In this document: one piece after another, positions 9,050-18,100 of the stretch | Layout: each line of letters begins with the position of its first letter | Position numbering within the stretch: the first letter of the stretch is position 1 | NCBI GenBank assembly: GCA_016220175.1 | Contig: JACRHZ010000017.1 | Location: 25,782-57,781 of the forward strand | Direction of reading: 5' to 3' | Length of the DNA: 32,000 nt | Source of the DNA: Candidatus Peregrinibacteria bacterium | GTDB taxonomy: Bacteria > Patescibacteriota > Gracilibacteria > CAIRYL01 | Position numbers and translations under genes: made by a program | The notes under the pieces: generated by a model | Told to the model about the DNA's origin: nothing | Seen by the model: the letters and a program-made list of their open reading frames with translations, nothing else | Databases searched by the model: none

Positions 9050-10594
9050 TTAGTCTTCTTCTTCTTCTTCTTCTTGTTTTTTAAAAAGCCGAAGGAGTGT
9101 TTTGTCGATGGCTCGAGAAGCGATGAGCATCGCGGTATAAACAGCAACTGAAAGTGGAATAATAATTCCCAGCGATGTTTTTCCGACAGATGATCCCCAG
9201 TATTTCCAAGAGAAATACGCGAAAAAACCCATAACAAACGAAGCGAAAATCGTTCCAAGAATCTGCCGAAAATGTACACGAAATGAAGCATGTCGAAAGA
9301 CAAAATACGTTCCCCATACGAGAATAAATACTTCAGAGATCAGCGATGTTACCGACGCGCCGATATATCCATATTTCGGAATGGCGTAAATATTCAGCAG
9401 AAAATTAAAAAGCAGCGCTCCAAAATTAATCCACAAAATCTTTTTTTGTTCTCCAAGTGCGATGAGAACAAAATTGAAAAATGTGGTAAAAAATATAAAG
9501 AGCAGCAAAGGACTCAGAATTTGAAGAGCGTTTTCACTTCCAAAGTTTTCTGGTGTCACAAGCTCTACAATTGGCTTTGCCAAAACATAAAGTCCAACGC
9601 TCGCAGGGACAGAGATGAGTAAGAGGAAGAAAAAACAAAGGGATAATCTGCCCTGAAGTTGTTTTTCATTTTTTTCATGAGCTGAATGCGAAAGTGAAGG
9701 AAGTACTGAATTCATGAAATATATTGGAACGAGAACAATCACTTCAACAATTCGCACCGCAACGGCATAAATTCCGGTTTGGATATCTCCGCAAAATTGT
9801 GCTGAACATATCCCCGCATCATCTGAATGGGGAAGAATAATTCCCATCATCGTAATGTCGAGACGGAAATAAATTGTATTCAGAAATATCGCAATCCCAA
9901 ATGGGATCGCCATATCAAAGAGTTCTCTGATGAGCTTTATGTTTTTGTTCGGCCTTAACGACACGTATTTTCTCGCGTATAATATCGTTACAATAAGCGT
10001 TACAGCGCTTCCGAGAACCCCCGTCCAAATAATTTGATAAAAACTTTCTTCTGTTGGTTCTGGAACAAAGAAGAAAATAATCGCGAGAGTAAGAGCAAAT
10101 GTTACTATTTTTCCGATGACGAGAGCAAACGATTGGTACTTCATCTTGAGGTGAATGAGGAAAATAGTCGAAATCGTTCCACTCAGAATAAATATTCCCG
10201 TGCCGATTCCAGCAATAAAAACGCCATACGGAATTTCCGTGCCCTGATATGCCGGAATCAAATAGGCAATGACAGAAGCGACCGCAAGAGCGAAAAGAAG
10301 AGAGACAATTCGAAGCGTAAGCGCGGAAGAAAAAATTTCCTGCACCTCATCTGTTTTTTTTGCCATTTCTCTCACCGCAATTGTAAAAATTCCGAGATCC
10401 GCGAGGGATGCGAATATCGCGATGTACTCAAAAATAGTGACATACGTTCCATATTTTGCTTGTCCAACTGCTACATTTCCATGAGCCCAATAATGTATTA
10501 AAAAGCCGATACTAATAAAAGCAAAAATTGCGTTAATAACGCGACCCATAATTTGCCAAAAAGTATTGCTGAGGATTTTGCGAGTAAGACTCAT
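9050..10594 (-). CDS. polytopic MOP-superfamily flippase (Wzx/polysaccharide-biosynthesis-protein-like)
   Basis: 514 aa, hydrophobic helices throughout. The N-terminus KILSNTFWQIMGRVINAIFAFI resembles the Polysacc_synt/MurJ-like family. Family assignment is by pattern only. The acidic tail KKQEEEEEED is encoded by (CTT)7. Confidence 0.6.
   Translation of the reverse strand: MSLTRKILSNTFWQIMGRVINAIFAFISIGFLIHYWAHGNVAVGQAKYGTYVTIFEYIAIFASLADLGIFTIAVREMAKKTDEVQEIFSSALTLRIVSLLFALAVASVIAYLIPAYQGTEIPYGVFIAGIGTGIFILSGTISTIFLIHLKMKYQSFALVIGKIVTFALTLAIIFFFVPEPTEESFYQIIWTGVLGSAVTLIVTILYARKYVSLRPNKNIKLIRELFDMAIPFGIAIFLNTIYFRLDITMMGIILPHSDDAGICSAQFCGDIQTGIYAVAVRIVEVIVLVPIYFMNSVLPSLSHSAHEKNEKQLQGRLSLCFFFLLLISVPASVGLYVLAKPIVELVTPENFGSENALQILSPLLLFIFFTTFFNFVLIALGEQKKILWINFGALLFNFLLNIYAIPKYGYIGASVTSLISEVFILVWGTYFVFRHASFRVHFRQILGTIFASFVMGFFAYFSWKYWGSSVGKTSLGIIIPLSVAVYTAMLIASRAIDKTLLRLFKKQEEEEEED
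9055..9075. repeat. (CTT)7 trinucleotide microsatellite encoding the poly-Glu tail of the flippase
   Basis: cttcttcttcttcttcttctt read directly. On the minus strand it gives GAA x6 before GAC TAA. Confidence 0.95.
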
Positions 10595-10597
10595 GGG

Positions 10598-10639
10598 GGA
10601 AGTAGGAAGTAGGAATTAGGAAGTAGGAAGTAGGAATAT
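10598..10639. repeat. second GGAAGTA heptamer array (6 units)
   Basis: ggaagta ggaagta ggaatta ggaagta ggaagta ggaatat, abutting the flippase start codon (10594, minus strand). Confidence 0.95.
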
Positions 10640-10806
10640 GTTAGTCTTATTTATCATGATCCAATCCTTCTTATTTCCAGGAAAGTGTGCGGGAAAAGGG
10701 GAATTTTTTCAAATACAATAAATACAAGATGGAAAAAATCTGAGGGTTTGCTAGAGTATACTCAAGCTTTTTCATTGTTCTCCACTTTTCATAATCATCA
10801 ATAATA

Positions 10807-11868
10807 ATGGGTCAGTTTTTTACTCTTCCCCCCAGACAGCTTTCGATTTTTCTCGAAAAAGTTCTTGCGAAAGGGCACAGGGTTATTGCCCCTCAAAAAA
10901 AAGGTCTCGTTCGATTTGAAGAATTGCATAATGCAAAAAATCTTTATCTGAAAGAGAACTCCTATTTTCCACTCAAAGAATATTTTTTTGGAAAACACGA
11001 AACTATTTTCGAATACAATAATGCAAAGATTCGTATTCCTAAAATCAAAACGCAACAAAAAATATTTTTTGGGATTCGTAGATGTGATTTGAATGCCATA
11101 GCCCATCAAGATCTCGTATTTCTGAGCGGGAAACATCCCGATCCCTATTACACTGCACGAAGAAAGGGGAGTGTTTTTATCGGATACCATTGCAACACGC
11201 CTCCGAGTAAATATTGTTTTTGTGGCTCGCTCGATCTGGAAGACTTTTACGATATTATGATTTGGAGAAAAAAAGAGTATTTTCTCCTTCACGTTCAAAC
11301 AAAAGCTGGAGAGAAGTTTCTGAAACCATTCCTTTCTCTGTTCAAAAAGAAAAAATATTCACTTACTCAAAAAGACCAAAAAATTCCGGGAACGAATCTC
11401 CTCAAGAAAAAAAATATTCGTAAACTGTATGGGAGTCGTGATTGGGAAAAAGGAGCGGCAATGTGTTTAAGTTGTAGCGCGTGTACTACGCTCTGTCCCA
11501 CGTGTTATTGTCACGAACTCTCGGATATTCCTGATCTTAAAAAATCGGGGACTGGAAAACGAGTTCGGTGTTGGTCTTCTTGCCAGCTGAAGTCATTCAC
11601 GCGTGTTGCGGGGAATCATATTTTTCGAGAAAAACGCGTACAGAGGTTCAAACATCGAATTTATCATCAGCTCGAGTATTTCAAAGAAAAAAATGGGAAG
11701 AATCTCTGTGTTGGATGCGGACGATGCATTTCCGGATGTCCGACGAGAATTGATTTTATTTCTCTTATTAATAGTATGGAGCCATCGAAAAAGAAAATAA
11801 GTCAAAAGATGCAGAAAAAGATTCATAAGAGGTTTCCGGTTTCTGCGTACACGAAGGAGAATTTTTAA
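10807..11868 (+). CDS. hydB: group 3b [NiFe] hydrogenase (sulfhydrogenase-type) beta subunit, 2x[4Fe-4S]
   Basis: Cys clusters CLSCSACTTLCPTCYC and CVGCGRCISGCP. AsrA/HydB-like size (353 aa). First gene of a B-G-D-A ordered cluster. Confidence 0.75.
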   Translation: MGQFFTLPPRQLSIFLEKVLAKGHRVIAPQKKGLVRFEELHNAKNLYLKENSYFPLKEYFFGKHETIFEYNNAKIRIPKIKTQQKIFFGIRRCDLNAIAHQDLVFLSGKHPDPYYTARRKGSVFIGYHCNTPPSKYCFCGSLDLEDFYDIMIWRKKEYFLLHVQTKAGEKFLKPFLSLFKKKKYSLTQKDQKIPGTNLLKKKNIRKLYGSRDWEKGAAMCLSCSACTTLCPTCYCHELSDIPDLKKSGTGKRVRCWSSCQLKSFTRVAGNHIFREKRVQRFKHRIYHQLEYFKEKNGKNLCVGCGRCISGCPTRIDFISLINSMEPSKKKISQKMQKKIHKRFPVSAYTKENF

Positions 11869-11901
11869 TCCAAATTTCTTCATCACAAAAATCTCCACCA
11901 A

Positions 11902-12708
11902 ATGTCACAAAAAAACGCCCTCATCCCTCGGCCCGTAAAAGTTCTCGATGTCTATCATGAATCGCCCGATACGATTACGATCACGCTTGATATGCAAGTG
12001 GATCATGAACCGGGACAATTTATTCAGGTGAGTCTCTTTGGAATTGGAGAGGCTCCAATTTCCATTAGTTCATACTCCAACAAATTTTTAAAAATTAGCG
12101 TTCGTGCCATCGGAAACGTCACCAATGAACTTGCGAAAGTGCAAAAAGGAGATATTCTGCACGTTCGTGGTCCATATGGAAATGGATATCCGCTGAAGGA
12201 ATATTTTGGAAAGAGTATAGTTTTAATTGGTGGGGGATGTGGAGTTGCGCCACTTAAAGGGGCAATTGACTACATTGAAGCGCATCGAGAAAAATTCCAT
12301 GATATCTATCTTTTTCTTGGGTTTCGCGGACCTGCTGATATTCTTTTTAAACGGGAACTCGTCGAATGGAGAAAAAAGTATCACATTGAAACGACAGTGG
12401 AGGAAGTTCCGCAGGGAACTTGTTATACCGGACAAAGCGGATACATCACCAAAGCACTCAGTGCATTTTCCATTTGCGGTCCAGACCGCTTTGTTGTTTT
12501 TATGTGTGGTCCTCCACCAATGATGAACGCATCTGTAAAAATTCTTCGTGAAAAAAAAGTTCCTTTTTCACGAATGTTTGTGAGTACTGAACGACTCATG
12601 TACTGTGCAATCGGGCAATGTTGCCACTGTATGGTTCGAGATAAATTTATCTGTACTGATGGACCGGTGTTTTGCTATGAAGATATCAGGAGAATTAAAT
12701 CCGACTGA
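11902..12708 (+). CDS. hydG: group 3b hydrogenase gamma subunit (PyrK/AsrB-like FAD/NAD(P)H oxidoreductase with [2Fe-2S])
   Basis: Ferredoxin-reductase-like layout: GQFIQV..., VLIGGGCGVAPL nucleotide-binding loop, MCGPPPMM. C-terminal CAIGQCCHCMV...CTDGPVF cysteine cluster. Confidence 0.8.
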   Translation: MSQKNALIPRPVKVLDVYHESPDTITITLDMQVDHEPGQFIQVSLFGIGEAPISISSYSNKFLKISVRAIGNVTNELAKVQKGDILHVRGPYGNGYPLKEYFGKSIVLIGGGCGVAPLKGAIDYIEAHREKFHDIYLFLGFRGPADILFKRELVEWRKKYHIETTVEEVPQGTCYTGQSGYITKALSAFSICGPDRFVVFMCGPPPMMNASVKILREKKVPFSRMFVSTERLMYCAIGQCCHCMVRDKFICTDGPVFCYEDIRRIKSD

Positions 12709-12723
12709 AGTAATTTTTAATTT

Positions 12724-12868
12724 TGTCCCGCATTGCGGGATTAAATTTCTAAATAATTTCTAAATTCTAATTTTTAAAATTTGTTATTGATAATACTCAG
12801 ATATTTCTCATTTAGAAATTAAACATTAAAATTTATTTAAAAATTCGAAATTCGAAATTTAAAATTTT
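12724..12868. repeat. AT-rich palindromic intergenic element, copy A (hydG-hydD spacer)
   Basis: GC hairpin tcccgc-att-gcggga (12726-12740). Left arm ttaaatttctaaataatttctaaattctaatttttaaaa. Unrelated loop. Right arm tttagaaattaaacattaaaatttatttaaaa is roughly the reverse complement. AAATTCG heptamers at 12841-12868. Confidence 0.8.
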
Positions 12869-12888
12869 TCCCCCTCTTCTCCAAACGC

Positions 12889-13647
12889 ATGGAAAAAACG
12901 AAGCTTAAAGTCGGCATCTTCTCTATCACCGGCTGTGCAGGATGTCAGCTCAGCGTGATTTTTAACGAAGATGAACTCTTGCCGCTCTTAAGTCTCATCG
13001 ATCTCCATGCGTTTCCATTTATCAAAAAAGTAAATGCGGAAGAAAATTTTGACTACGTGCTTATGGAAGGCTTAGTGGCAACGAAGGAAGATCTTCAAAA
13101 GCTCAAAAAAATTCGAAAAAATACAAAAAATCTCATTGCCCTTGGAGCATGTGCGCATACAGGATGCATTCCCGCATATCGAAATTTCACACTAAAAAAC
13201 AGATTTAACACTGTATATAACCACACATTGGAAAATATCAGAGGAAACCTCAAAAGCATTTCTCCATCGCCAATAGACGCTCATGTAAAGGTCGATTACA
13301 CCATTCCCGGATGTCCGCCGGATAAAAATGAAATTCTTTCTACGCTTTACAAAATTGCGAATGGTCTTACTCCTCGTCCGTATTCCGAACCGGTTTGCGT
13401 TGAATGTCGAAGAAATGGGAATCCGTGTTTACTCGAATTTGATAAACCATGTCTTGGACCAATAACTCGCGGTGGGTGCAATTCGGTCTGCACGAATTCC
13501 GGATTTGAATGTTGGGGGTGTCGAGGACACACTGATGACGCGAATGAAAAAGTTTTGATCGAATATTTTCGAAAAAAAGGATACTCGAGGAAGTGGATTG
13601 ATGAGAGGATGAAGACGTTTGTGGGGATGAAAATGGGAAAATTTTAA
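12889..13647 (+). CDS. hydD: group 3b [NiFe] hydrogenase small (delta) subunit
   Basis: Proximal-cluster motifs ITGCAGCQ, GACAHTGC, IPGCPP. A Cys-rich distal region follows (CVECRRNGNPC...CLGPITRGGCNSVC...CWGCRG). Confidence 0.85.
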   Translation: MEKTKLKVGIFSITGCAGCQLSVIFNEDELLPLLSLIDLHAFPFIKKVNAEENFDYVLMEGLVATKEDLQKLKKIRKNTKNLIALGACAHTGCIPAYRNFTLKNRFNTVYNHTLENIRGNLKSISPSPIDAHVKVDYTIPGCPPDKNEILSTLYKIANGLTPRPYSEPVCVECRRNGNPCLLEFDKPCLGPITRGGCNSVCTNSGFECWGCRGHTDDANEKVLIEYFRKKGYSRKWIDERMKTFVGMKMGKF

Positions 13648-13800
13648 ATTTTGAAATTCCAAATTTCTAAATAATTTCTAAATCGTAATTTTTAAACAAC
13701 GAAAAAGAAAATTCATGCTGAACAATATGAAATTTTGAAATTAAAAATTAGAAATTAAGATTTATTTAGAAATTTAAAATTTTAAAATTAAAAATTTCTC
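13640..13800. repeat. AT-rich palindromic intergenic element, copy B (hydD-hydA spacer)
   Basis: Left arm aaatttctaaataatttctaaatcgtaatttttaaac. Right arm ttaaaaattagaaattaagatttatttagaaattt is its near reverse complement. RAAATTA heptamers at 13737-13764. Confidence 0.8.
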
Positions 13801-13817
13801 AACATCGTCTAAAATTT

Positions 13818-15098
13818 ATGACACAGACAATTTCTCTCAACCACATCACCAAAATCGAAGGTCATGCTTCGCTCCGTATTGTCGTAGAGAAGGGGAAAGT
13901 AAAAAAATGTAACCTTTCTTCCGTAGAAGGTGCGCGATATTTTGAAGAACTTCTGATCGGAAGAGATTATACCGAAGCATTTGAACTCACTTCTCGAATT
14001 TGTGGAATTTGCAGTTCTGCTCATGTGATTTGTTCTATCACTGCTGTGGAAAATGCGCTTGGAATGAAAGCATCTGAACAAACCCTCAGACTTCGCGAAC
14101 TCTTAACACTCGGCGAAAGGATTCGCAGTCATGCGACGCATCTTTATTTTCTCGCACTTCCAGACTATCTCGGATATGAGTCCGCAATGGCAATGATTCC
14201 AAAATACACAAAAGAAATTGAACGGGCGCTTCGGCTCATGAAAATAGGAAATCTCATCGTCAAAATAATTGGGGGGAGAGATCTTCATCCGGTTTCAGCC
14301 CACGTTGGTGGATTTTCTTCATTCCCGAGAGAAGAAGAAATCCAAAACTGCCAAAAAGAACTTCAAAGTGTCCTCAAAGATGCGATTAAAACTGCAAAGC
14401 TTTTTATGAAACTCAAATTTCAGAAGTTTGAACGTGAAATTGAAATGTTTTCGCTCACAGATTCAAAAGGATACGCAATGCTTCATGGGGATCTTACTTC
14501 CGGAAAACATGTCTATAAACAATCAGAATTTGAAAAATATTTTTCGGAATTTCACGAGCCGCATTCCACGTCGAAATTTGCGCTGAAAGAAGGCAAAGAA
14601 TACAGGGTTGGAGCGCTTTCGCGGCTGAATCATAATTCAGAGCAGCTTTTTCCCTACGCAAAAAAAATGCTGAAAAAATCCAAACTTCGCCTTCCATCAT
14701 ATAATCCGTTTTTGAACAATCTCGCTCAAGCGATTGAACTTGTTCATGCGATCGAACATGCGATTCACATTTTTTCGAGTCTGAAAATTCGATCAGAAAA
14801 AATTCGAAAGCCAGTTCTTAAAAAATCATGTAAAGGAATTGCGGGAATTGAAGTTCCGCGCGGAATTTTGTGGCATGAATATGAGTTTAATGCCAAAGGG
14901 AAAATTACCAAAGCGAACATCATTACTCCCACAAGCCAAAATGTAAGAGCAATTCAAGAGGATATCAGAACATTTCTTCCAACGGTTCTTCATCTTTCCA
15001 GACCAGAAATCGAACTCGAAATAGAAAAACTTATTCGCTCGTATGATCCGTGCTTTTCCTGTTCAACGCATTTTTTGGATGTGAAGTGGGAAGAGTAA
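13818..15098 (+). CDS. hydA: group 3b [NiFe] hydrogenase large (alpha) catalytic subunit
   Basis: N-terminal NiFe ligand motif RICGICSSAH. C-terminal DPCFSCSTH followed by an 8-aa tail (FLDVKWEE) of the kind removed by a maturation endopeptidase. Confidence 0.9.
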   Translation: MTQTISLNHITKIEGHASLRIVVEKGKVKKCNLSSVEGARYFEELLIGRDYTEAFELTSRICGICSSAHVICSITAVENALGMKASEQTLRLRELLTLGERIRSHATHLYFLALPDYLGYESAMAMIPKYTKEIERALRLMKIGNLIVKIIGGRDLHPVSAHVGGFSSFPREEEIQNCQKELQSVLKDAIKTAKLFMKLKFQKFEREIEMFSLTDSKGYAMLHGDLTSGKHVYKQSEFEKYFSEFHEPHSTSKFALKEGKEYRVGALSRLNHNSEQLFPYAKKMLKKSKLRLPSYNPFLNNLAQAIELVHAIEHAIHIFSSLKIRSEKIRKPVLKKSCKGIAGIEVPRGILWHEYEFNAKGKITKANIITPTSQNVRAIQEDIRTFLPTVLHLSRPEIELEIEKLIRSYDPCFSCSTHFLDVKWEE

Positions 15099-15110
15099 GC
15101 TTTTTAAGAA

Positions 15111-15150
15111 GGAGAGGACGCACATACGCATCCTCTCCGAGAGTTTTTTT
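15111..15150. terminator. GC-rich hairpin terminator between convergent hydA and copA
   Basis: ggagagga (15111-15118) pairs with tcctctcc (15131-15138). A T7 run lies at 15144-15150. Confidence 0.7.
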
Positions 15151-18100
15151 ACCATGAGAATTCAGTACTAACAAAGTGCATTTCATCGAGAAGTGTTCCT
15201 GTTGAGGGAAGAATCTTGGTGATGATTACTTTATTTCCAAAGAAATCATCGAGAAGATCTCCTTCTTTTGTGAAGAGATTTTCGCTGAGCATAATCTTTG
15301 CTTCGGTCGCGCCAAGGATTACGGGAACATATTTATTTTTCCCAAGAGAAATAGAACGGAGATCCTCAAATTGTATTTCATTCACGAGTCGTGAAGGAAT
15401 TGACCCAGGACCAAAAATGACATAAAACTTTTTTATATTTTCTCCTGCAAGTTCGAGTTTTATTGGGTTTCCAGAAATCTGCGTAAATGCTTCTGGGGAA
15501 AGAAGATGTGATATGTCCAGGAATGTACCCGTTGGCGCCAAAACTCCTGAAATTTTCACTGAAGGAAGACCGAAAAAGTCAACAATTTCATCTCCTGCTT
15601 TTTGAAATAAATTCTCCTTTTTCATCACTTTTGCTTCCTCTGCTCCGACAAGTGTTTCAAAAGTTCCATCGATCGTAATTTTCCCTTCAGAAGCTGTTAT
15701 TTGAGGAATAAGACGAGAGTCAGTAAATACTTTTGGTGTTCCTTCTGGACTGAACGCCATTTTAAATTTCTTTTGAGCAATATTCCTATTTATTTGTGAT
15801 ATAACTGCGCTTTCCGCAGTTCCAAGGGTCGGTTCCTTCGACATTCTTGAGCTTGTTACTGCAAATTGCCAAAATGCGAAAGTAAAGAGAAGTACCATAA
15901 AAACAGGAGCAATCATGGAAATATAATTCCGTTTGCGTGGTTTAAAATTTCTGAGGAGCAATGAATTGAGTACTACGGAAACAGAGCTGAGCGCCATAGC
16001 AAGACCCGCAAGTTCTGGCTTCAGAATGAGGCCAAAGCTCGCAAATACGCGCGCTGCAATAGGAATCCCAATAACGTTGTAAAAAAGCGCGAAAAACATA
16101 TTCTGCTTTATTTTCCCCATGGTTTCACGGGAAAGTTTGAGCGCCGTAACGACGTCGCGGAGATCATTCTTGATAATCACAATTCCGCCAGCTTCAAGCG
16201 CAACATCTGTTCCAGATCCCATCGCAATTCCAAGATTTGCTTGAGCGAGAGCAGGCGCGTCATTAATGCCATCTCCCACCATCGCCACTTTTTTCCCGAG
16301 TTCCTGAAGTTTCTTGACTTCCCTCGCTTTATCTTCGGGAAGAACTTCCGCGAGGACATTGGTAATTCCGACTTCATCTGCAATTGATTTTGCTGTTCTC
16401 ATGTTATCTCCTGTGATCATATACACTTCGAGCCCCATGCGAATGAGCTTGGTAATGGCTTCCTTGGAGGTTTCTTTTACGGTATCTGCAACCGCAATGC
16501 ATCCCAAAATTTCACTTTTCGATGCGAGAATCATTACCGTTTTTCCCTTTTCTTCCAGTTTTACTATTTTTCTCTCGATTTTCGACATTTCCAGAAGCGC
16601 GTATTCCGCAATGAGTTTTCTGTTGCCGAGGAAATATTCAACATTTTCAATTTTTCCCGTTACTCCATGACCAGGAATTGCCTGAAAATCCTCAACCTCG
16701 CTAAATGTAACTCCTTCTTCCTCCGCGGAAGCGTAAATAGACTCAGCAAGAGAGTGTTCTGAAAGCTTTTCAAGTGATGCCGCTATTTGCAAAACATCTT
16801 CTTCATCACCTGTTCCAAAACTCACTACGTCTGTTACTTCAGGTTTTCCTTTCGTGAGAGTTCCAGTTTTATCAAATATAAGAGTGGTAATGTTTCGCGC
16901 CGCTTCAAGAGGTTCGCCTCCTTTAATCAGAATTCCATTTTCAGCGCCTTTTCCTGTTCCCACCATGAGCGCTGTTGGCGTTGCAAGTCCAAGAGCACAC
17001 GGACATGCGATGACAATGACTGCCGTGAAAGCAAGGAGAGCAAATGAGAGAGATGCGCCTAAAAGAAAGTACCAAATGATAAATGTGAGAATGGCAATAC
17101 CGATAACTGCTGGAACAAACCATGAAGATATACGATCAGCAAACGCCTGAATTGGCGCTTTTGATCCTTGTGCTTCTTCAATAAGGCGAATAATTTGAGC
17201 GAGTGTTGTTTCAGATCCTATTCTTTGTGCTTCAAACTCAAATGTTCCTGTTTTATTGATCGTTGCTCCAATGACCATATCACCGACAGTTTTTTCCACA
17301 GGAATACTTTCTCCACTAATCATCGATTCATCGAGAGAAGATGATCCTTTCATAATAACTCCATCGACCGGAACTTTCTCTCCCGGTCTGACCATAATAA
17401 TATCCCCATGGGTGACTTCATCAATGGGAATATCTTTCACTGAGCCATTGCGAACAACCCGCGCCGTTTTTGCCTGAAGTCCCATGAGCTTGGTAATGGC
17501 GTCTGATGTTCTTCCCTTTGCCTTCGATTCTAGCCACTTTCCGAGGAGCACGAATGTAATTAGAAATGCCGCTGTCTCAAAATACAAGTCTGGGACTTTT
17601 TCTCCATTGAGACCTAAAACAGAAAAATTGTTGAATGAGGAAACGAGATAATTTCCAAGACTGTAAAAAAACGCGGTACTTGTTCCGATAGCGATAAGGC
17701 TATCCATGTTAAATGTTCTCATCTTGAGGCTTGACCATGCGCCTTTATAAAACCCAGAACCTGCGTAAAATTGTACGGGAATGGTGAGGATGAGCGAAAT
17801 AATTCCAATGTATGGTGGGAAAAAATTCCCTCCAGGGAGCCACTTGAAGAAATCAAGAAGCATGAAATAGAGCATCGGAAGACTGAGGACGAGGGAAAAT
17901 ATAAATTTATGGAAGTAGTGTGAAATCGTCATTTCACGCTTTTTTCGTTCCGCTCCAGTATCAGTTTCAGAAAGAATTTCTACTCCATATCCTGCTTTTT
18001 TTACGGCATTCATGACATCTTGAATTGAATTTTTGGTTTCATCGAACACTACAGAAGCCTTTTCTGCAGCAAAATTCACATTCGCCGTTTTGACACTCTC

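Follow-up and report, generated by a model that had tools for sequence, protein, structure and literature searches.

In enterobacterial operons, REP/BIME and ERIC sequences form intergenic palindromes that are transcribed along with the genes and can serve as 3' stabilisers or as processing sites. Bacterial rRNA genes can contain intervening sequences (IVSs), and in the classical cases RNase III cleaves these and the fragments are not religated (PMC11270868). [quoted passage not shown] 2024, PMC11270868). Between protein-coding genes, the hairpins of the Correia elements of Neisseria are reported to be bound and cleaved by RNase III, altering the expression of neighbouring genes (PMC2649163). 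Our literature search found no paper that describes IVS-type elements between protein-coding genes.

The locus described here is the hydBGDA operon of a Candidatus Peregrinibacteria bacterium, which lies within a stretch of 32,000 nucleotides that was analysed as a whole and is referred to as the window (Table 1; loci elsewhere in the genome are given by contig and position, C74 being the contig that contains the window). Two of the three spacers of this operon are filled by AT-rich palindromic elements, A and B, which look like passengers of a genome-wide expansion of such elements and not like controls specific to the hydrogenase. An initial reading of the DNA letters without database searches (the sequence-only reading) had given the spacers as 33 nt for hydB-hydG, 180 nt for hydG-hydD and 170 nt for hydD-hydA, lengths which the coordinates of the ORF map reproduce. 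It had also described palindromes as filling both of the long spacers, and this too was confirmed, the two fillings being related repeats.

Table 1. Features of the hydBGDA operon and of the elements within it
Feature	Position in window	Position in genome	Strand	Basis
hydB, beta (Fe-S) subunit of group 3b [NiFe] hydrogenase	10807..11868		+	ORF; Fer4_22 (Pfam), sulfhyd_HydB/AsrA (NCBIfam)
hydG, gamma (FAD/NAD-binding) subunit	11902..12708		+	ORF, Pfam, NCBIfam, C-terminal comparison
Element A, degenerate ORF-less family copy filling the hydG-hydD spacer	12712..12867	C74:38493-38648		nhmmer 69.5 bits
Nested GC hairpin TCCCGCATTGCGGGA in the left arm of element A	12726..12740			second small repeat
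hydD, delta (small) subunit	12889..13647		+	ORF, Pfam, NCBIfam, C-terminal comparison
Element B, ORF-less family copy filling the hydD-hydA spacer	13639..13797	C74:39420-39578		nhmmer 93.9 bits
hydA, alpha (large, catalytic) subunit	13818..15098		+	ORF, Pfam, NCBIfam, ligand motifs
GC-rich intrinsic-terminator-like hairpin GGAGAGGA...TCCTCTCC, then a T run	15111..15150		+	read from sequence

Pfam and NCBIfam models together identify HydBGDA as the beta, gamma, delta and alpha set of a group 3b (sulfhydrogenase-type) enzyme, with NCBIfam sulfhydrogenase models among the best matches for all four proteins, but under their equivalog cut-offs. The Ni-Fe ligand motifs of HydA, RICGICSSAH and DPCFSCSTH (the L1 and L2 Cys motifs), are intact. 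Although these ligands are intact, searches of the genome, which is 96% complete, did not detect HypD (TIGR00075) or HypE (TIGR02124), so the activity of the hydrogenase is uncertain, and any argument from the tolerated expression of the operon is correspondingly weaker. The hairpin downstream of hydA sits between that gene and the convergent copA and likely marks the end of the hydBGDA transcription unit; an automated terminator scan missed it because its T run begins 5 nt past the stem. Its GC-rich stem and T run show that the organism uses normal terminators.

Only one of 40 related genomes, a member of the same order (G016), carries the operon, with spacers of 50 nt at hydG-hydD and 20 nt at hydD-hydA and no element at either junction. 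Twelve further related operons were taken from metagenomes and two Phycisphaerales genomes; in these the hydG-hydD distance lies between -29 and +18 nt in all but one (76 nt), and that of hydD-hydA between -23 and +7 nt in all but four (69-94 nt). The claim of the sequence-only reading that group 3b operons are closely packed is borne out by these figures, as the genes overlap or lie at most 20 nt apart at hydG-hydD in 11 of 13 operons and at hydD-hydA in 9 of 13. Overlaps in the relatives, -1, -4 and -17 among them, indicate a translational coupling that would have been lost here. Judged by this comparison, A and B are insertions at precisely the two junctions, hydG|hydD and hydD|hydA, where related operons have short spacers or overlapping genes. 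One of the metagenome operons, also of group 3b (L014, contig Ga0187833_10003506; HydD 56% identity), has a 94-nt hydD-hydA spacer (L014:4257-4350) that forms two strong hairpins (-28.6 kcal/mol) and is unrelated in sequence to A and B. It was considered as a comparable repeat and set aside as uninformative, with no repetition within its 7.7 kb.

The ends of the flanking genes differ in how they meet the elements. The C-terminus of HydG is as long as in relatives, with element A lying directly 3' of the native TGA stop. The last codons of hydD, by contrast, lie together with its TAA stop inside the left terminus of element B, and the C-terminal tail of HydD is the shortest among the relatives compared, from which it appears that element B probably clipped a variable HydD tail. 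At the third junction, the end of hydB (window 11856-11885) reads GGAGAATTTTTAA and then TCCAAATTTCT, which resembles the left terminus of an element followed by a piece of arm. The C-terminal tail of HydB is longer than in relatives, and of the 26 occurrences of the 11-mer GAATTTTTAAT genome-wide, 16 fall in element loci. On these sequence resemblances, the hydB|hydG junction may retain the remains of a third copy, most of which has been deleted.

Element B is the better preserved of the two, with arms of 57 nt that are 82% complementary, are separated by 45 nt and can form about 47 base pairs along their length; its RNA fold has a predicted energy of -28.2 kcal/mol (z = -3.2). Element A is weaker, its best arms being 35 nt at 80% and its fold -24.8 kcal/mol (z = -2.0), and its left arm is broken up by the nested GC hairpin. 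The stems of 40 or more base pairs that had been proposed for both elements are thus found in B, and apply to A only loosely. A and B have an exact 23-mer in common at corresponding positions, whereas the expectation from shuffled sequences is 0, and a 28-nt core pattern has 35 matches in this genome versus 0 for a reversed control pattern, so the likeness of the two elements goes beyond chance. An Rfam search of window positions 10500-15300 returned no known RNA family. A look-up by exact protein for strain variants lacking the elements gave as its sole match one 988-nt contig of an independent Logan assembly (run SRR12113407), which is 100% identical to the window from A through hydD into the left arm of B and possibly comes from the same sample as the genome. 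The GC hairpin nested in A belongs to a separate small repeat of 15 nt (TCCCGCAWTGCGGGA) with 18 copies in the genome, that in A and 17 others, at sites that include C6:2867, C32:6865, C68:23006 and C75:12585; it is nested at the same arm position in several of the AT-rich elements and is also found alone elsewhere.

A search of the organism's own genome (1.49 Mb in 79 contigs) with BLAST and an nhmmer profile places A and B in a family of 53 loci, of which 29 are full-length matches at 60 bits or more in nhmmer. Members are about 120-190 nt long, with a GC content of roughly 10-15%, and their arms are conserved over 35-57 nt around loops that vary from 0 to 60 nt. The consensus arm reads AATTTTTAATTTTGAAATTTTAAATTTCTAAATAAAT, with more variable heptamer-like words further inward. 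Element B belongs to a subfamily in which arms and loop alike are common to the copies at C42:28872 and C62:3098, with a mean column identity of 85%, which indicates that whole elements have been copied to unlinked sites. The same shared loop rules out local growth of the heptamer arrays from simple repeats. Of the 40 related genomes, 39 gave no match to the 28-nt core, and the one match in the remaining genome, G031, is isolated and non-palindromic, so that a spread of the exact family to these relatives is not indicated. As far as these genomes allow a comparison, the family is a lineage-specific expansion.

On a gene map built crudely from ORFs, none of the copies falls within a called ORF; co-directional genes flank 37 loci, convergent genes 8 and divergent genes 6, and most copies fill the whole gap from stop to start. 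When the two rRNA copies are left out, the co-directional share is 71% versus 62.5% of all gene pairs (p = 0.24), and since these frequencies match the gene-pair background, the family shows no preference for operons. Copies split atpD|atpC, T2SSE|T2SSF (pilB|pilC), queE|queC and gnd|zwf, and the atpD-atpC gap, 166 nt here with its element, is short in three relatives. Orientation bias is likewise absent, as among the 12 co-directional copies that could be assigned, 4 run with the direction of the genes and 8 against it. No direct repeat that would mark a target-site duplication was found at the element termini, and no target hairpin was found either, the flanks of a copy pairing with each other no better than do cross pairs from different copies. 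An apparent GGAG...CTCC extension of the stems was rejected as a feature of the elements, since the purine-rich ends of ORFs and the pyrimidine-rich leaders account for it and the pattern looks alike on either strand.

Two copies of the family lie within rRNA genes. The 16S gene (C74:17927-20970, outside the window) has three insertions. The first, of 428 nt at Rfam model position about 80, carries a PF05635 ORF between GTTGTT/AACAAC heptamer arms; the second, of 213 nt at position about 190 (the tip of helix 10), holds the family copy C74:18564-18719; and the third measures about 870 nt and lies near position 1400. In the 23S gene, a hairpin insert of 164 nt at model position about 286 holds the copy C66:6232-6343. 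This gene (C66:5916-9893) is 3978 nt long against a model of 2925 positions and so contains about 1 kb of insertions, of which the 164-nt insert is the part examined. The 213-nt and 164-nt inserts each fold as a single rod that prolongs the rRNA helix it sits on, at -56.2 kcal/mol (z = -7.9) in 16S and -61.1 kcal/mol (z = -8.9) in 23S; these predicted structures have the classical IVS architecture. An RNase III is encoded at C74:1146-1799. PMC11270868 lists no insertions for the 16S genes of Peregrinibacteria, to which the present 16S gene is an exception if the assignment to this group is right.

The genome has four genes of the PF05635 family ('23S rRNA intervening-sequence protein'). One of them (C65:44115-44405) lies between family arms at 44032-44102 and 44452-44516, and this is the sole copy of the family that carries cargo, encoding an IVP and no known transposase. 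A phmmer search of this protein against the PDB gave a single match, the uncharacterised protein 2RLD; we take the IVP to be a four-helix-bundle protein, and presume that it shares its Pfam family with the Avd accessory protein of diversity-generating retroelements. At each of the four IVP loci (C63:21945-22385, C45:24860-25400, C65:44032-44516 and C74:18006-18433) the gene sits in the loop of a hairpin, and only one of the four is within an rRNA gene. The arms at these loci are arrays of different heptamers, in the same order GCAGTAA/GCAATAA, GGAATTA, those of the AT-rich family, and GTTGTTA. From its copies at the tips of 16S and 23S helices and the PF05635 gene in the loop of one copy, the family can be classed as an IVS-type mobile hairpin, of which A and B are a miniature, cargo-less form.

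The reading that we favour, and to which we give moderate confidence, is that A and B are passengers of this IVS-type expansion that sit in a single hydBGDA mRNA, where they have broken the coupling of the genes and are likely sites of RNase III cutting. Both are partly decayed, ORF-less copies of a lineage-specific, AT-rich palindromic mobile family which spread into intergenic gaps and into the helix tips of 16S and 23S rRNA. The operon would still be expressed as one unit, starting upstream of hydB and ending at the GC-rich terminator past hydA, as is suggested by that terminator and by the lack of any family-level promoter or terminator match. On the mRNA, each element would fold into a long, imperfect A/U-rich hairpin that leaves the 20-30 nt before the start codons single-stranded, so that hydD and hydA would initiate independently and not by coupling. 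By analogy with the stems of classical rRNA IVSs, such hairpins would be likely substrates of RNase III, and cleavage would yield hydBG, hydD and hydA pieces of possibly unequal stabilities. Among the options raised by the sequence-only reading, that of a processing site appears the most plausible, given that the family occurs inside rRNA genes as IVS-like rods and that RNase III is encoded. Compared with the rRNA inserts, A and B have much less extreme fold z-scores, and on these predicted folds they may be poorer RNase III substrates than the rRNA copies.

The leaders of hydD and hydA bear on the initiation step of this reading. In minimum-energy folds the 20-30 nt before both start codons are unpaired and pyrimidine-rich, and in this they resemble the G-poor leaders of the genome generally. 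Genome-wide, G falls to about 10% before start codons, and a Shine-Dalgarno (SD) core (GGAG, GAGG or AGGA) is found upstream of 4.7% of called genes versus 11.9% of background windows, the starts being crude longest-ORF calls. The 3' end of the 16S rRNA (C74:20956-20970) keeps the canonical GGATCACCTCCTT with its anti-SD.

A simpler possibility, which we regard as realistic though a good deal less probable, is that the elements are inert passengers, transcribed but uncut and without activity, that do no more than add a spacer of 150 nt and break translational coupling. The decayed state of A and B and their modest fold z-scores are in keeping with this, as is the absence of any sign that the stems are maintained. 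Own arms pair at -30.5 kcal/mol versus -32.1 kcal/mol for chimeric pairs of arms from different copies, with ranks spread evenly, so mutations in the stems go uncompensated and there is no sign of selection for the intergenic stems; the lack of orientation bias and of context preference agrees with inertness as well. Against it, the roughly 47 base pairs of B over its 57-nt arms are long enough for RNase III-type enzymes known from E. coli, and the family copies within rRNA genes must be removed or accommodated.

That the hairpins are selected regulators, kept as stabilisers or attenuators that set the ratio of HydBG to HydDA, we consider unlikely. In favour of this, one operon has elements at two of its three junctions, and REP and Correia elements are known to alter the stability of mRNA segments (PMC2649163). 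However, five pairs of elements within 3.5 kb of each other are seen in the genome, where about six are expected by estimate from 53 loci in 1.49 Mb, and two copies in one operon are therefore unremarkable. Unrelated operons are split by the same element, the stems decay without compensation, both junctions are element-free in G016, and in the related operons from metagenomes the spacers there are short. The role in subunit stoichiometry put forward by the sequence-only reading accordingly lacks support apart from where the elements lie, as nothing about them is specific to the hydrogenase and members of the same family occupy some 50 other spacers, in other operons as well. The elements offer no evidence that the hydrogenase is under dedicated regulation.

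We regard it as very unlikely that the elements carry outward-facing promoters from which hydD and hydA are transcribed separately, as had also been suggested. Correia elements can create promoters (PMC2649163), and weak sigma-70-like sites matching 9 of 12 positions do lie near the right ends of A (12836-12865) and B (13788-13815). But a scan of window positions 10400-15400 gave 13 weak sites, those in A and B included, against 12.0 in shuffled sequences, and neither a sigma-70-like promoter nor a terminator-like site was found in the best-preserved copy of the family. The -10 match in B ends 2 nt before the ATG of hydA, too near for transcription to start upstream of that codon, and convergent gene pairs, where antisense transcription would result, are not avoided (8 of 49 copies versus a background of 19%). 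Least probable of all is that the elements are partial intrinsic terminators which reduce transcription of the downstream genes, an option of the sequence-only reading that the sequence does not support: the hairpins are long, and in A the nested GC hairpin is followed by the T-rich TTAAATTTCT, but the stems consist of A/U-rich sequence and lack a following U tract, the scan marked no Rho-independent terminator (GC-rich stem and U tract) in A, in B or in the best copy, the organism has ordinary terminators of GC stem and T run, as after hydA, and copies interrupt atpD|atpC and further operons in which termination would carry a cost.

The locus illustrates how a small genome can cope with long hairpins that have repeatedly entered its operons, including operons that appear translationally coupled in relatives. 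If RNase III does cut the stems, the operon mRNAs of this lineage would be systematically processed, and the hydBGDA, atp and pil transcripts would be natural tests of how processing relates to subunit ratios. A broader extension, which we put forward as speculative and rather improbable, is that IVS-type hairpins are portable RNase III modules that cut the hyd, atp, pil, que and gnd-zwf transcripts into single-gene pieces, and that the released stem-loop RNA together with the IVP is the intermediate by which the elements spread. Were this true, one mechanism would account for rRNA fragmentation, mRNA processing and the mobility of the elements.

Compared with described systems, A and B stand at some distance from REP sequences, though the comparison drawn by the sequence-only reading was apt in that both are intergenic palindromes inside operons. 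REPs are about 35 nt long, GC-rich and linked to RAYTs, whereas the elements here are about 150 nt, AT-rich and free of orientation bias; A and B do not fit the REP/BIME type, a GC-rich imperfect palindrome of about 20-40 nt with a conserved tetranucleotide head and a link to a RAYT, and the GC hairpin nested in A is a small repeat of its own. The Correia elements (CREE/NEMIS) are similar in form, being about 100-160 bp long with inverted-repeat ends and many copies, often co-transcribed between genes. Terminal inverted repeats and dispersed copies, as in MITE- or Correia-like elements, are present in our family, and a target-site duplication is not. Correia elements differ further in that there is no sequence relation, and here no TA target duplication and no family-level promoter were seen. 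Nor are Correia elements known to occur within rRNA genes or to carry an IVP.

A further likeness is to the rRNA IVSs of Salmonella, Leptospira, Coxiella and others, which occur with or without a PF05635 (S23/IVP) ORF and in which, as here, complementary ends form a long stem. The family, though not A and B themselves, is found at 16S and 23S helix tips, one copy has a PF05635 ORF, and RNase III is encoded. Classical IVSs are described only in rRNA genes, whereas most copies here lie between protein-coding genes, and the stems of the present family are heptamer-periodic and extremely AT-rich. The short insertions (<200 bp) of CPR rRNA genes resemble it in being ORF-less and in lying at the tips of 16S and 23S stem-loops, and the IVP domain is present there too (PMC11270868); that work covers rRNA genes only, and mentions no occurrence of these sequences in the gaps between protein-coding genes. 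The family described here links rRNA intervening sequences with intergenic MITE- and REP-like repeats, two kinds of element that are usually treated apart.
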